A stretch of DNA of 64,000 nucleotides from the NCBI RefSeq assembly GCF_054482595.1, contig NZ_CM137008.1; one strand, given 5' to 3'. The notes under the pieces are model-generated. The model was given only the letters and a program-made list of their open reading frames with translations, was not told where the DNA came from and made no database searches. The position numbers and the translations under genes were made by a program. Each line of letters starts with the position of its first letter. The stretch's first letter is position 1. Of the stretch, positions 12,192 to 41,768 are shown piece after piece.

Positions 12192-13115
12192 TTACCAGCG
12201 CCCGGAAGCGCCACCGCCACCAGATGAACCGCCACCACCGCTAAAATTGTCATTGTCGAATGAAGAGGATGACGATGATGAATAGTGGGAGAAAGAATTG
12301 CTTCTTGTATGGCGTGATGGCTGGTTGGCATCACGCATCAAATCCCGAACTTTTTTGCCGAAGGGGGTAAAAGCGATGGCGACAGCCAGGAACGGTGTGG
12401 CGAAGCAGAGTAATGTTGTGAGTACTCCCCAGCTTCCGCTGAAACCTGCTATAGGTAAAACAAAGGCCAGTACAATAGCTGCGAAGCAAATTACTCCCAG
12501 CGTTTTGATATATCCTCTGGCAGAAATAAACGTCAGTACTATCGCCCAGGCTAACAAGGCCCACCAACCGCTAAAAGGTAAAGGGTGATCGGCCGGTGCT
12601 ATCGTCGCTAAATTATTCCCTGCCAAACGGTTTTCAATATCGCTGAGTCCCTTTTGCAAGCCGCCAGCAAGATCACCATTTTTAAATGCCGGAATAATAC
12701 TGTTGCGAATAATTTGCCCGGACTGCGCATCCGTAATAATACCTTCCAGTCCGTAACCGATTTCAATACGCACGGTATGATCCTGCCAGGCGACTAACAG
12801 TAGAACGCCATCATCGCTGTCTTTATCACCCGGTTTCCAGCTATCGAATACCCGCGTTGCGTACTGCTCGATGGTTTCATCGCCTGTTGTATCAACCACT
12901 AACACGACCAACTGTGCGTGGTTTTTTTGCGTCAGGGCTTTAATCTGGTTGGTCAGGGTGTTTACTTCGCTGTTTGTTAATGTGCCGGTTAAGTCATTCA
13001 CATACTTGGGGGATTCAGGTACTGGAATTTGTGTGGCAAACACAGATGAACAGAAGAAAGCCATAAGGAAGATAAAATTTCGCACAGAACTTCCCCGCTT
13101 AATGAGCATTAGCAT
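12192..13115 (-). CDS. TPM-domain membrane protein, paralog 3
   Basis: 307 aa ORF; TPM core GVLLLVAWQDHTVRIEIGYGLEG; TM helices; tail SGGGGSSGGGGASGRW; start ATG at 13115 or 13109, overlapping the lemA 3' end. Confidence 0.75.
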   Translation of the reverse strand: MLMLIKRGSSVRNFIFLMAFFCSSVFATQIPVPESPKYVNDLTGTLTNSEVNTLTNQIKALTQKNHAQLVVLVVDTTGDETIEQYATRVFDSWKPGDKDSDDGVLLLVAWQDHTVRIEIGYGLEGIITDAQSGQIIRNSIIPAFKNGDLAGGLQKGLSDIENRLAGNNLATIAPADHPLPFSGWWALLAWAIVLTFISARGYIKTLGVICFAAIVLAFVLPIAGFSGSWGVLTTLLCFATPFLAVAIAFTPFGKKVRDLMRDANQPSRHTRSNSFSHYSSSSSSSFDNDNFSGGGGSSGGGGASGRW

Positions 13116-13701
13116 TCTGGCTAAAATCTATTGTTGGGGCTTTACTTACTGCGGCGACATCATCCGGTAAATAATTTTTCTTTGGCGTGTAATCCATGAC
13201 CTTTGCGGTTAATACAGCGGGGAATTTGCGGATAGTGACATTATATTGTTCAATGGCTTTAATATATCTTCCTCGCGCAACGGCAATTCTATTTTCACTT
13301 CCTTCGAGCTGTACCATTAAGTTTTGATAGAGTTCCTGAGATTTTAACTCAGGGTAACGCTCACTAATTATCGTTAACTGACCGAGAGTGCGAGTCACCT
13401 GCGCTTGAGCCTGTTGCCAGGCTTGTAATTTTTGTTCATCTCCCGGAGTTTGCTGAAGATCGCTACTGGCGCGATTAGCCTGGCTACGAGCCAATGTTAC
13501 GGCTTCCAGTACATCTCGTTCATGGCTGGAATAACCTTTAATGCTGGCGACAAGATTAGGAATAAGATCGGCGCGACGTTGATATTGATTCAATACCTCA
13601 GACCAGGAGGCGTTAACCTGCTCATCATAGGTTTGAATATCGTTATATCCACAGCCTGATAAATTGAAAATAAATATAATTACGATGAATATTCTGAGCA
13701 T
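13099..13701 (-). CDS. LemA-family protein, probable lipoprotein
   Basis: 200 aa ORF MLRIFIVIIFIFNLSGC with lipobox LSGC; LemA-like helical region; first gene of lemA-TPM-TPM-TPM operon. Confidence 0.75.
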   Translation of the reverse strand: MLRIFIVIIFIFNLSGCGYNDIQTYDEQVNASWSEVLNQYQRRADLIPNLVASIKGYSSHERDVLEAVTLARSQANRASSDLQQTPGDEQKLQAWQQAQAQVTRTLGQLTIISERYPELKSQELYQNLMVQLEGSENRIAVARGRYIKAIEQYNVTIRKFPAVLTAKVMDYTPKKNYLPDDVAAVSKAPTIDFSQNANAH

Positions 13702-14883: not shown

Positions 14884-15339
14884 GAGTTCCCCGCGCCAGC
14901 GGGGATAAACCGGCCTGGCGATTTCTCGTCAGGCCTTGCGGTGTGAGTTCCCCGCGCCAGCGGGGATAAACCGTCAGTAAAGCGGCGCCCACTGATATCG
15001 GATTAGAGTTCCCCGCGCCAGCGGGGATAAACCGAGGGGCAGGGAGTGACGCTGGAGCAGGCGATCGAGTTCCCCGCGCCAGCGGGGATAAACCGGGAAA
15101 TTAGGCAAATGTGAACACGGCGGCCCCGAGTTCCCCGCGCCAGCGGGGATAAACCGCCAGTATTTTGTCGTGGATTGCGGGATCACCAGAGTTCCCCGCG
15201 CCAGCGGGGATAAACCGTTGAGTTTGTTCGTAACAACGCGGGTCATCTGGAGTTCCCCGCGGCAGCGGGGATAAACCGGGTACAAAAGAGGCCCCATTCT
15301 GGCAGGGCTCAAGTTCCCCGCGCCAGTGGGGATAAACCA
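14884..15339 (+). CRISPR. Type I-E CRISPR array A: 8 repeats, 7 spacers of 32 nt
   Basis: Repeat gagttccccgcgccagcggggataaaccg at 14884, 14945, 15006, 15067, 15128, 15189, 15250 (c13g variant), 15311 (degenerate terminal); exact 61-bp period. Confidence 0.97.
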
Positions 15340-31830: not shown

Positions 31831-32130
31831 CGAGCAGCATTCCTGATTTTAAACGTGAACGCCGCTGGAAGAATTATCAGGTATAGAATGGCGTCGGGTG
31901 CTTGAGGCTGTCTGGCGTTAAGCATTCGCGAGGTTCCAGATGGACAAAAGCCCCAGGCGATATTTCTATCAACCTGAGGCTCGCGTTCGAACGTAGCAAT
32001 TCGGATGTTAGTCTCTTCTTTGCAGGGAGGCAAGACATGTGTATATCACTGTAATTCGATATTTATGAGCAGCATCGAAAAATAGCCCGCTGATATCATC
32101 GATAATACTAAAAAAACAGGGAGGCTATTA

Positions 32131-34797
32131 ATGGAACCTTTTAAATATATATGCCATTACTGGGGAAAATCCTCAAAAAGCCTGACGAAAGGAAATGATA
32201 TTCATCTGTTAATTTATCATTGCCTTGATGTTGCTGCTGTTGCAGATTGCTGGTGGGATCAATCAGTCGTACTGCAAAATACTTTTTGCCGAAATGAAAT
32301 GCTATCAAAACAGAGGGTGAAGGCCTGGCTGTTATTTTTCATTGCTCTTCATGATATTGGAAAGTTTGATATACGATTCCAATATAAATCAGCAGAAAGT
32401 TGGCTGAAATTAAATCCTGCAACGCCATCACTTAATGGTCCATCAACACAAATGTGCCGTAAATTTAATCATGGTGCAGCCGGTCTGTATTGGTTTAACC
32501 AGGATTCACTTTCAGAGCAATCTCCCGGGGATTTTTTCAGTTTTTTTGATGCCGCTCCTCATCCTTATGAGTCCTGGTTTCCATGGGTAGAGGCCGTTAC
32601 AGGACATCATGGTTTTATATTACATTCCCAGGATCAAGATAAGTCGCGTTGGGAAATGCCAGCTTCTCTGGCATCTTATGCTGCGCAAGATAAACAGGCT
32701 CGTGAGGAGTGGATATCTGTACTCGAAGCATTATTTTTAACGCCAGCCGGGTTATCTATAAACGATATACCACCTGATTGTTCATCACTGTTAGCAGGTT
32801 TTTGCTCGCTTGCTGACTGGTTAGGTTCCTGGACCACAACGGATACCTTTCTTTTCAAAGAAGATGCACCTTCAGGAATACAAGCGCTAAGAACATATTT
32901 TCAGGATAGACAGCAGGATGCGTGTCGGGTACTGGCGCTGAGTGGCCTTGTATCAAATAAGCGTCGTTATGACGGTGTACATGCCTTACTGGACAATGGC
33001 TATCAACCAAGACAATTACAGGTGTTGGTCGATGCTCTTCCTACAGCTCCCGGGCTGACGGTGATTGAGGCACCTACGGGATCAGGTAAAACCGAAACAG
33101 CGCTGGCCTATGCCTGGAAACTTATTGACCAACAACTTGCGGAGAGTGTTATTTTTGCCCTCCCTACACAAGCTACTGCAAATACAATGCTCAGCAGAAT
33201 GGAAGCGAACGCGAGCCGTTTATTTACCTCCCCAAATCTTATTCTTGCTCATGGTAATTCACGTTTTAACCACCTTTTTCAATCAATAAAATCACGCGCA
33301 TTTACTGAGCAGGGGCAAGAAGAAGCGTGGGTTCAGTGTTGTCAGTGGTTGTCACAAAGCAATAAGAAAGTGTTTCTTGGGCAAATCGGCGTTTGCACTA
33401 TTGATCAGGTGTTGATATCGGTATTGCCAGTTAAACACCGCTTTATCCGTGGTTTGGGAATTGGTCGAAGTGTTTTAATTGTTGATGAAGTTCATGCTTA
33501 CGACACCTATATGAACGGCTTGCTGGAGGCAGTGCTCAAGGCTCAGGCTGATGTGGGAGGGAGTGTTATTCTTCTTTCCGCAACCCTACCAATGAAACAA
33601 AAACAGAAACTTCTGGATACTTATGGTCTGCATACAGATCCAGTGGAAAATAACTCCGCATATCCACTTATTAACTGGCGAGGTGTGAATGGTGCGCAAC
33701 GTTTTGATCTGCCAGCTCATCCAGAACAACTCCCGCCCCGCTTTTCGATTCAGCCAGAACCTATTTATTTAGCTGACATGTTACCTGACCTTACGATGTT
33801 AGAGCGAATGATCGCAGCGGCAAACGCGGGTGCACAAGTCTGCCTCATTTGCAATTTGGTTGACGTTGCACAACTATGCTTCCAACGGCTAAAGGAACTA
33901 AATGACACGCAAGTAGATATAGATTTGTTTCATGCGCGCTTTACGCTGAACGATCGTCGTGAAAAAGAGAATCGTGTCATTAGCAATTTCGGAAAAAATG
34001 GGGAGCGAAATGTTGGACGAATACTTGTCGCCACCCAGGTCGTGGAACAATCACTCGATGTAGATTTTGATTGGTTAATTACCCAGCATTGTCCCGCTGA
34101 TTTGCTTTTCCAACGATTAGGCCGTTTACATCGCCATCATCGTAAATATCGTCCCGCCGGTTTTGAGATTCCTCTGGCAACCGTTTTGCTGCCTGATGGC
34201 GAAGGTTACGGACGACATGAGCATATTTATAGCAACGTTAGAGTCATGTGGCGGACGCAGCAACATATTGAGGAACTTAATGGAGCATCCTTATTTTTCC
34301 CTGATGCCTACCGGCAATGGCTGGATAGCATTTACGATGATGCTGAAATGGATGAGCCAGAATGGGTCATCAAAGGCATGGATAAGTTTGAAAGCGCTGA
34401 GTGTGAAAAGAGGTTCAAGGCTCGCAAGGTTCTGCAGTGGGCTGAAGAATATAGTTTGCAGGATAACGATGAAACCATTCTTGCGGTAACGAGGGATGGG
34501 GAAATGAGCCTGCCATTATTGCCTTATGTACAAACGTCTTCAGGTAAACAACTGCTCGATGGCCAGGTCTACGAGGACCTAAGTCATGAACAGCAGTATG
34601 AGGCTTTAGCACTTAATCGCGTCAATGTGCCATTTACCTGGAAACGTAGTTTTTCTGAAGTAGTCGATGAAGATGGGTTACTTTGGCTGGAAGGAAGGCA
34701 GAATCAGGATGGATGGATCTGGCAGGGTAACAGTATTGTTATTACCTACACTCGGGATGAAGGGATGACCAGAGTCATCCCTGCAAATCCCAAATAA
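32131..34797 (+). CDS. cas3: Cas3 helicase-nuclease (type I-E)
   Basis: 888 aa ORF MEPFKYICHYWGKSS; HD motif region (HDIGKF), Walker A APTGSGKT, DEVH box (VLIVDEVHAYD). Confidence 0.96.
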   Translation: MEPFKYICHYWGKSSKSLTKGNDIHLLIYHCLDVAAVADCWWDQSVVLQNTFCRNEMLSKQRVKAWLLFFIALHDIGKFDIRFQYKSAESWLKLNPATPSLNGPSTQMCRKFNHGAAGLYWFNQDSLSEQSPGDFFSFFDAAPHPYESWFPWVEAVTGHHGFILHSQDQDKSRWEMPASLASYAAQDKQAREEWISVLEALFLTPAGLSINDIPPDCSSLLAGFCSLADWLGSWTTTDTFLFKEDAPSGIQALRTYFQDRQQDACRVLALSGLVSNKRRYDGVHALLDNGYQPRQLQVLVDALPTAPGLTVIEAPTGSGKTETALAYAWKLIDQQLAESVIFALPTQATANTMLSRMEANASRLFTSPNLILAHGNSRFNHLFQSIKSRAFTEQGQEEAWVQCCQWLSQSNKKVFLGQIGVCTIDQVLISVLPVKHRFIRGLGIGRSVLIVDEVHAYDTYMNGLLEAVLKAQADVGGSVILLSATLPMKQKQKLLDTYGLHTDPVENNSAYPLINWRGVNGAQRFDLPAHPEQLPPRFSIQPEPIYLADMLPDLTMLERMIAAANAGAQVCLICNLVDVAQLCFQRLKELNDTQVDIDLFHARFTLNDRREKENRVISNFGKNGERNVGRILVATQVVEQSLDVDFDWLITQHCPADLLFQRLGRLHRHHRKYRPAGFEIPLATVLLPDGEGYGRHEHIYSNVRVMWRTQQHIEELNGASLFFPDAYRQWLDSIYDDAEMDEPEWVIKGMDKFESAECEKRFKARKVLQWAEEYSLQDNDETILAVTRDGEMSLPLLPYVQTSSGKQLLDGQVYEDLSHEQQYEALALNRVNVPFTWKRSFSEVVDEDGLLWLEGRQNQDGWIWQGNSIVITYTRDEGMTRVIPANPK

Positions 34798-35211: not shown

Positions 35212-36720
35212 ATGAATTTGCTTATTGATAACTGGATCCCTGTACGCCCGCGAAACGGGGGGAAAGTCCAAATCATAAATCTGCAATCGCTATACTGCAG
35301 TAGAGATCAGTGGCGATTAAGTTTGCCCCGTGACGATATGGAACTGGCCGCTTTAGCACTGCTGGTTTGCATTGGGCAAATTATCGACCCGGCAAAAGAT
35401 GACGTTGAATTTCGACATCGCATAATGAATCCGTTCACTGAAGATGGGTTTCAACAACTCATCGCGCCGTGGATAGATATGTTCTACCTTAATCACGCAG
35501 AACATCCCTTTATGCAGACCAAAGGTGTCAAAGCAAATGATGTGACTCCAATGGAAAAACTGTTGGCAGGGGTAAGCGGCGCGACGAATTGTGCTTTTGT
35601 CAATCAACCGGGTCAGGGTGAAGCATTATGTGGTGGATGCACTGCGATTGCGTTATTCAACCAGGCGAATCAGGCACCTGGTTTTGGTGGTGGCTTTAAA
35701 AGTGGTTTACGTGGAGGAACACCTATAACCACCTTCGTACGTGGGATCGATCTTCGCTCGACGGTGTTACTCAATGTCCTCACAATACCTCGTCTTCAAA
35801 AACAATTTCCCAATGAATCACATACGGAAAACCAACCTACCTGGGTTAAGCCTGTCAAACCCAATGAATCTGTGCCAGCTTCGTCAATTGGCTTTGTCCG
35901 CGGCTTATTCTGGCAACCAGCGCATATTGAATTATGCGACCCCATTGGGATTGGAAAATGTTCTTGCTGTGGGCAGGAAAGCAATTTGCGTTATACCGGT
36001 TTTCTTAAGGAAAAATTTACCTTTACAGTTAATGGGCTATGGCCCCATCCGCATTCCCCTTGTCTGGTAACAGTCAAGAAAGGGGAGGTTGAGGAAAAAT
36101 TTCTTGCTTTCACCACCTCCGCACCATCATGGACACAAATCAGCCGAGTTGTGGTAGATAAGATTATTCAAAATGAAAATGGAAATCGCGTGGCGGCGGT
36201 TGTGAATCAATTCAGAAATATTGCGCCGCAAAGTCCTCTTGAATTGATTATGGGGGGATATCGTAATAATCAAGCATCTATTCTTGAACGGCGTCATGAT
36301 GTGTTGATGTTTAATCAGGGGTGGCAACAATACGGCAATGTGATAAACGAAATAGTGACTGTTGGTTTGGGATATAAAACAGCCTTACGCAAGGCGTTAT
36401 ATACCTTTGCAGAAGGGTTTAAAAATAAAGACTTCAAAGGGGCCGGAGTTTCTGTTCATGAGACTGCAGAAAGGCATTTCTATCGACAGAGTGAATTATT
36501 AATTCCCGATGTACTGGCGAATATTAATTTTTCCCAGGCTGATGAGGTAATAGCTGATTTACGAGACAAACTTCATCAATTGTGTGAAATGCTATTTAAT
36601 CAATCTGTAGCTCCCTATGCACATCATCCTAAATTAATAAACACATTAGCGCTTGCCCGCGCCACGCTATACAAACATTTACGGGAGTTAAAACCGCAAG
36701 GAGGGCCATCAAATGGCTGA
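35212..36720 (+). CDS. casA: Cse1 (CasA, Cas8e) Cascade large subunit
   Basis: 502 aa ORF MNLLIDNWIPVRPRNGGKVQIINLQSLY. Confidence 0.95.
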   Translation: MNLLIDNWIPVRPRNGGKVQIINLQSLYCSRDQWRLSLPRDDMELAALALLVCIGQIIDPAKDDVEFRHRIMNPFTEDGFQQLIAPWIDMFYLNHAEHPFMQTKGVKANDVTPMEKLLAGVSGATNCAFVNQPGQGEALCGGCTAIALFNQANQAPGFGGGFKSGLRGGTPITTFVRGIDLRSTVLLNVLTIPRLQKQFPNESHTENQPTWVKPVKPNESVPASSIGFVRGLFWQPAHIELCDPIGIGKCSCCGQESNLRYTGFLKEKFTFTVNGLWPHPHSPCLVTVKKGEVEEKFLAFTTSAPSWTQISRVVVDKIIQNENGNRVAAVVNQFRNIAPQSPLELIMGGYRNNQASILERRHDVLMFNQGWQQYGNVINEIVTVGLGYKTALRKALYTFAEGFKNKDFKGAGVSVHETAERHFYRQSELLIPDVLANINFSQADEVIADLRDKLHQLCEMLFNQSVAPYAHHPKLINTLALARATLYKHLRELKPQGGPSNG

Positions 36721-37195
36721 TGAAATTGATGCAATGGCTTTATATCGAGCCTGGCAACAACTGGATAATGGAGCATGTGCGCAAATTAGACGTGTTTCAG
36801 AACCTGATGAATTACGCGATATCCCTGCGTTTTATAGGCTGGTGCAACCTTTTGGTTGGGAAAACCCACGTCACCAGCAGGCTCTTTTGCGCATGGTGTT
36901 TTGCCTGAGCGCAGGAAAGAATGTCATCCGACATCAGGACAAAAAACCGGAGCAAACAACAGGTATCTCGTTGGGAAGAGCTTTAGCCAATAGTGGAAGA
37001 ATTAACGAGCGCCGTATCTTTCAATTAATTCGGGCTGACAGAACAGCCGATATGGTCCAGTTACGTCGATTACTTACTCACGCCGAACCCGTACTTGACT
37101 GGCCATTAATGGCCAGGATGTTGACCTGGTGGGGAAAGCGCGAACGCCAGCAACTTCTGGAAGATTTTGTATTGACCACAAACAAAAATGCGTAA
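36713..37195 (+). CDS. casB: Cse2 (CasB) Cascade small subunit
   Basis: 160 aa ORF MADEIDAMALYRAWQQLDNG; 8-nt overlap with casA. Confidence 0.95.
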   Translation: MADEIDAMALYRAWQQLDNGACAQIRRVSEPDELRDIPAFYRLVQPFGWENPRHQQALLRMVFCLSAGKNVIRHQDKKPEQTTGISLGRALANSGRINERRIFQLIRADRTADMVQLRRLLTHAEPVLDWPLMARMLTWWGKRERQQLLEDFVLTTNKNA

Positions 37196-37207
37196 GGAAA
37201 CCTTTCT

Positions 37208-38299
37208 ATGTCTAACTTTATCAATATTCATGTTCTGATCTCTCACAGCCCTTCATGTCTGAACCGCGACGATATGAACATGCAGAAAGACGCTATTTTC
37301 GGCGGGAAAAGACGAGTAAGAATTTCAAGTCAAAGCCTTAAACGTGCGATGCGTAAAAGTGATTATTACGCACAAAATATTGGTGAATCCAGTCTCAGAA
37401 CAATTCATCTTGCACAATTACGTGATGTTCTTCGGCAAAAACTTGGTGAACGTTTTGACCAAAAAATCATCGATAAGACATTAGCGCTGCTCTCCGGTAA
37501 ATCAGTTGATGAAGCCGAAAAGATTTCTGCCGATGCGGTTACTCCCTGGGTTGTGGGAGAAATAGCCTGGTTCTGTGAGCAGGTTGCAAAAGCAGAGGCT
37601 GATAATCTGGATGATAAAAAGCTGCTCAAAGTTCTTAAGGAAGATATTGCCGCCATACGTGTGGATTTACAGCAGGGTGTTGATATTGCGCTTAGTGGAA
37701 GAATGGCAACCAGCGGCATGATGAGTGAGTTGGGAAAAGTTGATGGTGCAATGTCCATTGCGCATGCGATCACTACTCATCAGGTTGATTCTGATATTGA
37801 CTGGTTCACCGCTGTAGATGATTTACAGGAACAAGGTTCTGCACATCTGGGAACTCAGGAATTTTCATCGGGTGTTTTTTATCGTTATGCCAACATTAAC
37901 CTCGCTCAACTTCAGGAAAATTTAGGTGGTGCCTCCAGGGAGCAGGCTCTGGAAATTGCAACCCATGTTGTTCATATGCTGGCAACAGAGGTCCCTGGAG
38001 CAAAACAGCGTACTTATGCCGCTTTTAACCCTGCGGATATGGTAATGGTTAATTTCTCCGATATGCCACTTTCTATGGCAAATGCTTTTGAAAAAGCGGT
38101 TAAAGCGAAAGATGGCTTTTTGCAACCGTCTATACAGGCGTTTAATCAATATTGGGATCGCGTTGCCAATGGATATGGTCTGAACGGAGCTGCTGCGCAA
38201 TTCAGCTTATCTGATGTAGACCCAATTACTGCTCAAGTTAAACAAATGCCTACTTTAGAACAGTTAAAATCCTGGGTTCGTAATAATGGCGAGGCGTGA
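37208..38299 (+). CDS. casC: Cas7e (CasC) Cascade backbone subunit
   Basis: 363 aa [36 protein letters not shown]. Confidence 0.95.
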
Positions 38300-38301
38300 A
38301 C

Positions 38302-38976
38302 ATGAGATCTTATTTGATCTTGCGGCTTGCTGGGCCAATGCAAGCCTGGGGGCAGCCGACCTTTGAAGGAACGCGACCTACCGGAAGATTTCCGACCCGA
38401 AGCGGGTTATTAGGGCTACTCGGGGCTTGTCTTGGGATCCAACGTGATGATACTTCTTCATTACAGGCGTTATCAGAGAGTGTGCAATTTGCAGTGCGCT
38501 GCGATGAACTCATTCTTGACGATCGTCGTGTGTCTGTAACGGGGTTGCGTGATTACCATACAGTCCTTGGAGCGCGAGAAGATTACCGTGGTTTGAAAAG
38601 TCATGAAACGATTCAAACATGGCGCGAATATTTATGTGATGCCTCCTTTACCGTCGCTCTCTGGTTAACACCCCATGCAACGATGGTTATCTCAGAACTT
38701 GAAAAAGCAGTATTAAAGCCTCGGTATACACCCTACCTGGGGCGGAGAAGTTGCCCACTAACACACCCGCTTTTTTTGGGGACATGTCAGGCATCGGATC
38801 CTCAGAAGGCGCTATTAAATTATGAGCCCGTTGGCGGCGATATATATAGTGAGGAATCAGTTACAGGGCATCATTTAAAATTTACGGCGCGCGACGAACC
38901 GATGATCACCTTACCTCGACAATTTGCTTCCCGAGAATGGTATGTGATTAAAGGAGGTATGGATGTATCTCAGTAA
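38302..38976 (+). CDS. casD: Cas5e (CasD)
   Basis: ATG at 38302 (MRSYLILRLAGPMQAWGQPTFEG), 224 aa; ORF-track start 38296 is GTG two codons upstream. Confidence 0.93.
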   Translation: MRSYLILRLAGPMQAWGQPTFEGTRPTGRFPTRSGLLGLLGACLGIQRDDTSSLQALSESVQFAVRCDELILDDRRVSVTGLRDYHTVLGAREDYRGLKSHETIQTWREYLCDASFTVALWLTPHATMVISELEKAVLKPRYTPYLGRRSCPLTHPLFLGTCQASDPQKALLNYEPVGGDIYSEESVTGHHLKFTARDEPMITLPRQFASREWYVIKGGMDVSQ

Positions 38977-39562
38977 AGTCATCATTGCCAGGGCCTGGAG
39001 CAGGGATCTTTACCAACTTCACCAGGGATTATGGCATTTATTTCCAAACAGACCGGATGCTGCTCGTGATTTTCTTTTTCATGTTGAGAAGCGAAACACA
39101 CCAGAAGGCTGTCATGTTTTATTGCAGTCAGCGCAAATGCCTGTTTCAACTGCCGTTGCGACAGTCATTAAAACTAAACAGGTTGAATTTCAACTTCAGG
39201 TTGGTGTTCCACTCTATTTTCGGCTTCGGGCAAATCCGATCAAAACTATTCTCGACAATCAAAAGCGCCTGGACAGTAAAGGGAATATTAAACGCTGTCG
39301 GGTTCCGTTAATAAAAGAAGCAGAACAAATCGCGTGGTTGCAACGTAAATTGGGCAATGCGGCGCGCGTTGAAGATGTGCATCCCATATCGGAACGGCCA
39401 CAGTATTTTTCTGGTGATGGTAAAAGTGGAAAGATCCAAACGGTTTGCTTTGAAGGTGTGCTCACCATCAACGACGCGCCAGCGTTAATAGATCTTGTAC
39501 AGCAAGGTATTGGGCCAGCTAAATCGATGGGATGTGGCTTGCTATCTTTGGCTCCACTGTGA
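38963..39562 (+). CDS. casE: Cas6e (CasE) crRNA endoribonuclease
   Basis: 199 aa ORF MYLSKVIIARAWSRDLYQLHQGLWHLF; overlaps casD 3' end. Confidence 0.95.
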   Translation: MYLSKVIIARAWSRDLYQLHQGLWHLFPNRPDAARDFLFHVEKRNTPEGCHVLLQSAQMPVSTAVATVIKTKQVEFQLQVGVPLYFRLRANPIKTILDNQKRLDSKGNIKRCRVPLIKEAEQIAWLQRKLGNAARVEDVHPISERPQYFSGDGKSGKIQTVCFEGVLTINDAPALIDLVQQGIGPAKSMGCGLLSLAPL

Positions 39563-39577
39563 TTGAGGTGTAATAAA

Positions 39578-40780
<1,203 letters not shown>

Positions 40781-40885: not shown

Positions 40886-41768
40886 GAGTTCCCCGCGCCA
40901 GCGGGGATAAACCGCATTTAATGCAAAACTAATTGCACAATAAATAGAGTTCCCCGCGCCAGCGGGGATAAACCGGCGATAAACCTCCTCATCGCTGATA
41001 TCAATAAGAGTTCCCCGCGCCAGCGGGGATAAACCGATAAAGGCTCGGCGGCGCAAAAAATGGCACGGGAGTTCCCCGCGCCAGCGGGGATAAACCGCTC
41101 TCGTTGTTGTGCCTCAGTACCGGTGCGCGGAGTTCCCCGCGCCAGCGGGGATAAACCGCACACCGGTGCGACGGGAAACGTTCAGCGGCCGAGTTCCCCG
41201 CGCCAGCGGGGATAAACCGGGAATAGTTAATTTCGGTGATGGCTGCGTAAAGAGTTCCCCGCGGCAGCGGGGATAAACCGAGTAATGCTGCGTTGAGATG
41301 ACCAGGCGGGCTGAGTTCCCCGCGGCAGCGGGGATAAACCGTTGACGCCAGCGGCGACCCGCGCCACGGGCTTGAGTTCCCCGCGCCAGCGGGGATAAAC
41401 CGTAGCCAGACGTACTCGCAATCTGTCGGCGGTCGAGTTCCCCGCGCCAGCGGGGATAAACCACCAGTTCTCCGTATTCTGTGGTTATCGTTGCTGAGTT
41501 CCCCGCGCCAGCGGGGATAAACCGGGAGTTCAGACATAGGTGGAATGATGGACTACGAGTTCCCCGCGTTAGCGGGGATAAACCGCCCGGTAGCCAGGTT
41601 TGCAACGCCTGAACCGAGAGTTCCCCGCGCCAGCAGGGATAAACCGGCAACGACGGTGAGATTTCACGCCTGACGCTGGTGTTCCCCGCGCCAGCGGGGA
41701 TAAACCGGGCGCACTGGATGCGATGATGGATATCACTGAGAATTCCCCGCCCCTGCGGTAGAACACCC
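40886..41768 (+). CRISPR. Type I-E CRISPR array B: 15 repeats, 14 spacers of 32 nt
   Basis: Repeats every 61 bp from 40886 to 41740; variants at repeats 7-8 (c13g), 10 (3' a), 12 (cc to tt), 13 (g to a), 14 (a2t); terminal repeat 41740-41768 degenerate. Confidence 0.97.

Follow-up and report, generated by a model that had tools for sequence, protein, structure and literature searches.

The two CRISPR arrays in the 64,000 nucleotide stretch of contig NZ_CM137008.1 (RefSeq assembly GCF_054482595.1) analysed here, the whole of which is referred to as the window, very likely document, as a fixed record, temperate phages and an F-like conjugative plasmid that were encountered in the past. Judged from their sequence, they are the ordinary type I-E CRISPR pair of a K-12-related E. 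coli strain. Of the 21 spacers, 5 (24%) have convincing protospacers in mobile elements, these being A2, B2, A5, B8, and A7. The original prediction had named as its own refutation an absence of significant hits anywhere, and this is not what was found.

The arrays, their cas genes, and K-12

The following features were identified at the two loci.

14884..15339, + strand: CRISPR array A, between queE and ygcE, with 8 repeats and 7 spacers (A1 to A7)
32131..34797, + strand: cas3, intact, 888 aa (NF007248, 1607 bits)
35212..39562, + strand: Cascade operon, cse1, cse2, cas7e, cas5e, and cas6e, all intact
39578..40494, + strand: cas1e pseudogene, with 1 A deleted at approximately 40018 relative to K-12, in two reading frames
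40496..40780, + strand: cas2e, intact, 94 aa
40781..40885, + strand: AT-rich leader of array B, from the cas2 stop codon to the first repeat, placed as in K-12, with a putative promoter
40886..41768, + strand: CRISPR array B, on the iap/cas2 side, with 15 repeats and 14 spacers (B1 to B14)
41525..41739, + strand: spacers B11 to B14, the trailer-end block, common to K-12 MG1655 and thousands of other genomes

The repeat of both arrays is GAGTTCCCCGCGCCAGCGGGGATAAACCG, the same as the repeat of K-12. The partly palindromic 29 nt repeats, the 32 nt spacers, and the 61 nt period are those of a type I-E system. The repeats of array B are spaced at exactly 61 nt and the last of them is degenerate. 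The 14 spacers in array B and 7 in array A that were originally described, all of 32 nt, are correct in their coordinates, counts, and lengths, with 32 nt being the exact length of all 21 from A1 to A7 and from B1 to B14. Both arrays read 5' to 3' on the + strand and array A likewise has an AT-rich leader upstream. Array B is identical, and annotated as CRISPR, in eight RefSeq genomes. The locus in strain TUM18780 that is identical to array A is annotated in its RefSeq record.

Two repeats end in ...ACCA in place of ...ACCG, these being repeat 10 of array B (41435-41463) and the terminal repeat of array A (15311-15339). The final base of the repeat is normally a G copied from the PAM. Either the PAM from which B10 was taken may have lacked the G, or the end base of repeat 10 may have mutated.

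The genes upstream of array B are in the order cas3, cse1, cse2, cas7e, cas5e, cas6e, cas1e, and cas2e, with iap downstream of the array. The NCBIfam curated cut-offs for type I-E are exceeded by every Cas protein except Cas1, and the RefSeq annotation agrees. The two pieces of Cas1e score 182 and 164 bits, both below the TIGR03638 cut-off of 215.6 bits. An intact Cas1e-Cas2e adaptation module was therefore not found, cas2e being intact and cas1e split. All of the relatives examined have the 1 nt deletion in cas1, and the gene is annotated as frameshifted in 8 independent assemblies (TUM18780, 88COLEC, APEC37, W619, Santai, GF66.1, XH990, and THO-010), the sources of which are humans, chickens, a pig, and a duck in Japan, Singapore, Russia, China, and Switzerland. 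Since eight assemblies of such different origin share it, the deletion is a trait of the lineage and not a sequencing error.

Between cysH and cas3 there is a match to the Rfam sok antitoxin RNA (RF01794, 97.5 bits) at 31896-32051 (+), so that cas3 is immediately preceded by a chromosomal hok/sok-type locus, as in K-12. Between the arrays this was the sole match in the Rfam search, which found no match to a CRISPR repeat family.

The arrays are at the same chromosomal positions as in K-12, in the arrangements cysH-cas3...cas2-array-iap and queE-array-ygcE. The suggestion in the original prediction that the spacer counts differ from those of K-12 was right. The iap-side array of MG1655 has 14 repeats and 13 spacers, counting a terminal degenerate repeat that is un-annotated in RefSeq, compared to 14 spacers here, and the 394 nt array between queE and ygcE has 7 repeats and 6 spacers, compared to 7 spacers here. 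The B11 to B14 block is held in common with K-12, including its repeat polymorphisms, although the last 2 nt of B14 differ. Spacers B1 to B10 and the whole of array A are not in K-12, and cas1, frameshifted here, is intact there. Upstream of queE, at 12192-13701 (-), there are LemA-family and TPM-domain genes, one of which is annotated as partial in TUM18780; at this position K-12 has ygcG and yqcG.

Lacking a functional Cas1, the arrays can take up no further spacers. The arrays of the relatives with the cas1 frameshift contain no spacer that is absent from the arrays in the window and differ only by the duplication (B4; B4-B5; B11-B13) or deletion (B2-B3; B9) of existing units. In every relative the spacer nearest the leader is B1, thus the leader-end differences that would mark active adaptation were not seen. 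The duplications, in GF66.1, XH990, and THO-010, are internal and in tandem, involving spacer-repeat units. Since they are present in relatives with a frameshifted cas1, the arrays are able to change by repeat recombination even without Cas1.

It was originally expected that matches would date the arrays. This holds for relative ages, which are given by the order of the spacers and by the B11 to B14 block shared with K-12, and not for an absolute date. The cas1 frameshift sets the point after which no spacer joined the arrays, from which no absolute date follows either.

Similar spacers are found in the arrays of other strains. The arrays of unrelated strains, including HS and LF82, have spacers matching B8 (41342-41373) at 26-27 of 27-28 aligned bases, and several strains have a spacer matching B1 (40915-40946) at 29/30. 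This suggests either independent acquisitions from variants of one protospacer or old spacers that have diverged.

Protospacers in prophages and F-like plasmids

The matches of individual spacers to mobile elements are listed below.

14974..15005, + strand: spacer A2, 32/32 with PAM ATG, in a 'lysozyme inhibitor LprI family' gene of a lambdoid prophage in EC958 and approximately 450 other genomes
15157..15188, + strand: spacer A5, 31/32 (mismatch at position 22) with PAM AAG, in a DUF1133 gene of a lambdoid prophage in STEC384 and STEC379
15279..15310, + strand: spacer A7, 29/32 (mismatches at positions 14, 18, and 30) with PAM ATG, in traD of F and more than 1,500 F-like conjugative plasmids
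40976..41007, + strand: spacer B2, 32/32 with PAM AAG, in a DnaB-like replicative helicase gene of the same prophage as A2
41220..41251, + strand: spacer B6, tentative, 23/32 with PAM GAG, in the GF43 prophage, on the strand of the B8 site and 3.5 kb upstream of it
41342..41373, + strand: spacer B8, in a prophage gene for a tail-fibre N-terminal domain, 30/32 with PAM AAG (JNE151685) and 29/32 with PAM AGG (GF43)

Widely shared spacers were taken out of the query against the E. coli genomes to stop their matches to arrays from masking others, and four further targets, those of A2, B2, A5, and B8, were thereby exposed. The A2 and B2 protospacers are 3.4 kb apart, on opposite strands of one lambdoid prophage, which is inserted beside tRNA-Leu/Cys/Gly and pgsA. 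One or both of these sequences are present in 458 of 5,426 complete E. coli genomes (~8%), always at 100% identity and mostly paired, and among these 458 matches only about a dozen are arrays. The prophage is common in ST131, with strains EC958 and JJ1886 among its carriers. It is absent from the array-bearing genomes, of which there are approximately 14, all related.

Spacers A2 and B2 are each the second spacer from the leader in their own array. Primed acquisition linking the two was considered and is not supported, the protospacers being on opposite strands of the prophage.

The B2 sequence is also present in five IMG/VR viral contigs. In one of these, IMGVR_UViG_2740892219_000010 (1402-1439), the protospacer is perfect and has the PAM ACG instead of AAG, which could be a PAM escape variant or a neutral polymorphism.

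The match of B6 falls outside the usual limit of 4 mismatches. Of its 9 mismatches to the GF43 prophage, 7 are at third codon positions, and the site is probably a diverged homologue only.

The alignment of A7 to traD, in F and in thousands of F-like conjugative plasmids, covers the whole spacer. Across the 72,556 plasmids searched, the best allele matches at 29/32, and PLSDB has no traD allele with fewer than three mismatches to A7. In F traD, mismatches 18 and 30 are at synonymous third codon positions. Taken alone, this match has a low BLAST score (46 bits, E = 0.3), and it was accepted because the alignment is full-length, a PAM is present, two of the three mismatches are at synonymous third positions, and reversed spacers served as a control.

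Strain TUM18780, in which the arrays are identical to those in the window, is host to an IncF ColV-type plasmid, pMTY18780-2 (NZ_AP023199.1). The traD site of this plasmid (12119-12150) matches A7 at 28/32, the fourth mismatch being a synonymous change of GGT to GGG at seed position 3. As TUM18780 carries an F-like plasmid, A7 does not exclude all plasmids of this type.

Among the same 72,556 plasmids, B14 was the only spacer other than A7 to give matches, and these were rejected as protospacers since all are in CRISPR arrays, on three chromosomes filed as plasmids and on one IncHI2 plasmid with an entire cas operon. The 293 kb conjugative IncHI2 plasmid pIOMTU792 (NZ_LC542972.1, 243939-249966) has a complete type I-E segment made up of cas5e, cas6e, cas1e, cas2e, an array, and iap. 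The last spacer of its array resembles B14 (28/32). The segment appears to be a stretch of the E. coli chromosome that a plasmid has picked up.

Of the phage and plasmid matches originally suggested as a possibility, those in the prophages of other E. coli and in traD of plasmids were found, and none was found in deposited phage genomes. A search of 50,697 deposited phage records (INPHARED) with the 21 spacers gave nothing credible. Its lone match, 25/26 nt to a Salmonella houtenae chromosomal contig (E = 0.4), was treated as chance. Exact scans of IMG/VR with N at every sixth position, for which B2 with its five contigs was the positive control, took in A1, B1, B3, B11, B12, B13, and B14 and gave no match for any of these. 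There was no non-array match in the phage records, plasmids, or E. coli genomes for A1, A6, B1, B3 to B5, B7, B9, and B10. In a spread sample of the E. coli genome matches, those of A3 and A4 were to arrays only. Spacers B11 to B14 have thousands of matches to arrays, from which non-array chromosomal matches cannot be separated. With 16 of the 21 spacers lacking a convincing target, most of the array record is unread.

Chance similarity and self-targeting

The matches are almost certainly not chance similarities, which would leave the arrays uninformative; for A2 and B2 this explanation is already refuted. The E-values of the imperfect matches are modest (0.3 for A7, 0.02 for B8, and 0.001 for A5) and the searches ran over very large databases (7.3 and 28 Gb), both of which speak for chance. 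However, by our own calculation, approximately 6e-8 matches of 32/32 would be expected for 21 spacers on both strands of 28 Gb, and two were found. Full-length matches of at least 29/32 would be expected approximately 2e-3 times over the 7.3 Gb plasmid set, also by our own calculation and before any PAM is required, with better matches being expected far less often than this.

The flanking sequences also argue against chance. The AWG-type PAM that the original prediction proposed to look for is present 5' of the protospacer at all five best matches, as ATG for A2 and A7 and as AAG for A5, B2, and B8, with its G corresponding to the last base of the repeat as in type I-E systems. An AWG would occur by chance at approximately 1/32 of sites. 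All five claimed protospacers are within annotated phage or plasmid genes, and a check for flanking repeats found none. Reversed spacers used as a control had no match in the E. coli genomes and in the plasmids a single 43 bit match, to a Streptomyces replicon.

It was also raised in the original prediction that spacers might match the host chromosome, indicating autoimmunity or gene regulation. Approximately 10% of complete E. coli genomes have been reported to have a self-targeting spacer (Dion et al., ISME J 2024, PMC10910852), yet for the spacers here self-targeting is extremely improbable. Beyond the arrays, none of the 21 spacers has a match in the window better than 21/32, which is at the level of chance. 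The genomes were screened by BLASTN with the 21 spacers joined by N linkers against the 5,426 complete E. coli genomes. All 14 array B spacers are present in eight chromosomes (TUM18780, TUM18530, 88COLEC, APEC37, W619, DETEC-C31, YZMc3-1, and 2824), and each of these, with its identical array B, has exactly two matching places, both of which are the arrays (E <= 10, ~42 bits). This screen covers near-full-length matches; short partial or seed-only pairing would escape it, which is a point in favour of self-targeting. In GF66.1, XH990, and THO-010 there are three or four matching places, the extra ones of which were suspected self-targets and proved to be the duplicated units within the arrays.

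Immunity and the meaning of the record

As an extension of established type I-E biology, the arrays would be transcribed from the leader and the transcript cut by Cas6e into 61 nt crRNAs that are loaded into Cascade. On binding a protospacer flanked by a PAM, Cascade would recruit Cas3 and the DNA would be degraded. In such a process A2 and B2 would be perfect guides against the ST131-type phage. With Cascade and Cas3 intact, the strain could in principle destroy this phage, and probably the targets of A5 and B8 as well.

The laboratory rules for type I-E interference are said to come from Semenova in 2011, Fineran in 2014, and the Cascade structures, and reportedly give AAG, ATG, AGG, and GAG as PAMs, positions 1-5 and 7-8 as the seed, and every sixth position as unpaired. 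Set against these rules, the PAMs of all of the matches here would be interference-proficient and the mismatches of A5, B8, and A7 are outside of the seed. In the classical F traD, mismatches 18 and 30 fall at unpaired every-sixth positions, therefore only the one at position 14, outside of the seed, counts. The traD site of pMTY18780-2, with its mismatch at seed position 3, is predicted to escape direct interference.

Type I-E systems in E. coli are usually silenced by H-NS, a point restated by Dion et al. (PMC10910852). Interference in nature would depend upon relief of this silencing.

It is possible, if unlikely, that the arrays provide working immunity under natural selection, with A2 and B2 kept to block lysogeny by the ST131-type prophage and A7 kept to limit F-like plasmids. 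An anti-prophage hypothesis has been published (PMC10910852), and here Cascade and Cas3 are intact despite the dead cas1. There are two perfect spacers with good PAMs against one widespread prophage that is absent from all array-bearing genomes. However, these genomes are few and closely related, such that the absence from each is not independent, and shared ancestry rather than immunity may account for it. The Santai subgroup has lost B2-B3 and yet has not gained this prophage. The extra mismatch at seed position 3 in the resident F-like plasmid of TUM18780 is as would be seen in an escape variant, and the ACG in place of AAG beside one IMG/VR copy of the B2 target points the same way. The GGG allele of the traD site is nonetheless found in approximately 3,000 plasmids (80-90% identity band), and as a common synonymous variant it is no evidence of escape or selection. 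The normal silencing of the system by H-NS also argues against selected immunity.

More specifically, this acquisition-dead lineage could be keeping its intact Cascade-Cas3 and two perfect spacers by selection, through the blocking of lysogeny by a lambdoid phage found almost universally in the pandemic ST131 clone, with the ACG PAM and traD position 3 being traces of escape. This is considered quite improbable. If true, the selected Cascade-Cas3 with A2 and B2 would illustrate, in a natural E. coli lineage, 'anti-prophage' type I-E immunity that is functional.

The reading preferred here, that of a fixed record of past encounters, is in keeping with published work. Dion et al. (PMC10910852) reported that the spacers of E. 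coli CRISPR1 almost exclusively target prophages in bacterial genomes, that the arrays remain stable, and that resident prophages are seldom self-targeted. As in that study, the phage targets here are in prophages within bacterial genomes and not in deposited virulent phages, and 5 of 5 matches pass its criterion of 4 or fewer mismatches over 32 nt. The proportion of spacers assigned is 24% (5/21) here, compared to approximately 60% by Dion et al. with far larger bacterial and virome databases. Their study treats CRISPR1, whereas the second array is covered here too and one plasmid target, traD, is added. The findings are a clean instance of the pattern already known, in which E. coli spacers target prophages, and are nothing new in kind.

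For roughly one spacer in four, the source can be read as a temperate phage or an F-like plasmid met in the past. It is still a matter of debate in the field whether the native type I-E system of E. coli is ever effective against temperate phages. Several sequenced isolates, among them TUM18780, 88COLEC, APEC37, and W619, combine an intact interference module, a dead cas1, and two perfect, PAM-correct spacers against the ST131 prophage. Such isolates, together with that prophage, are a convenient natural pair for testing native type I-E immunity against temperate phages.
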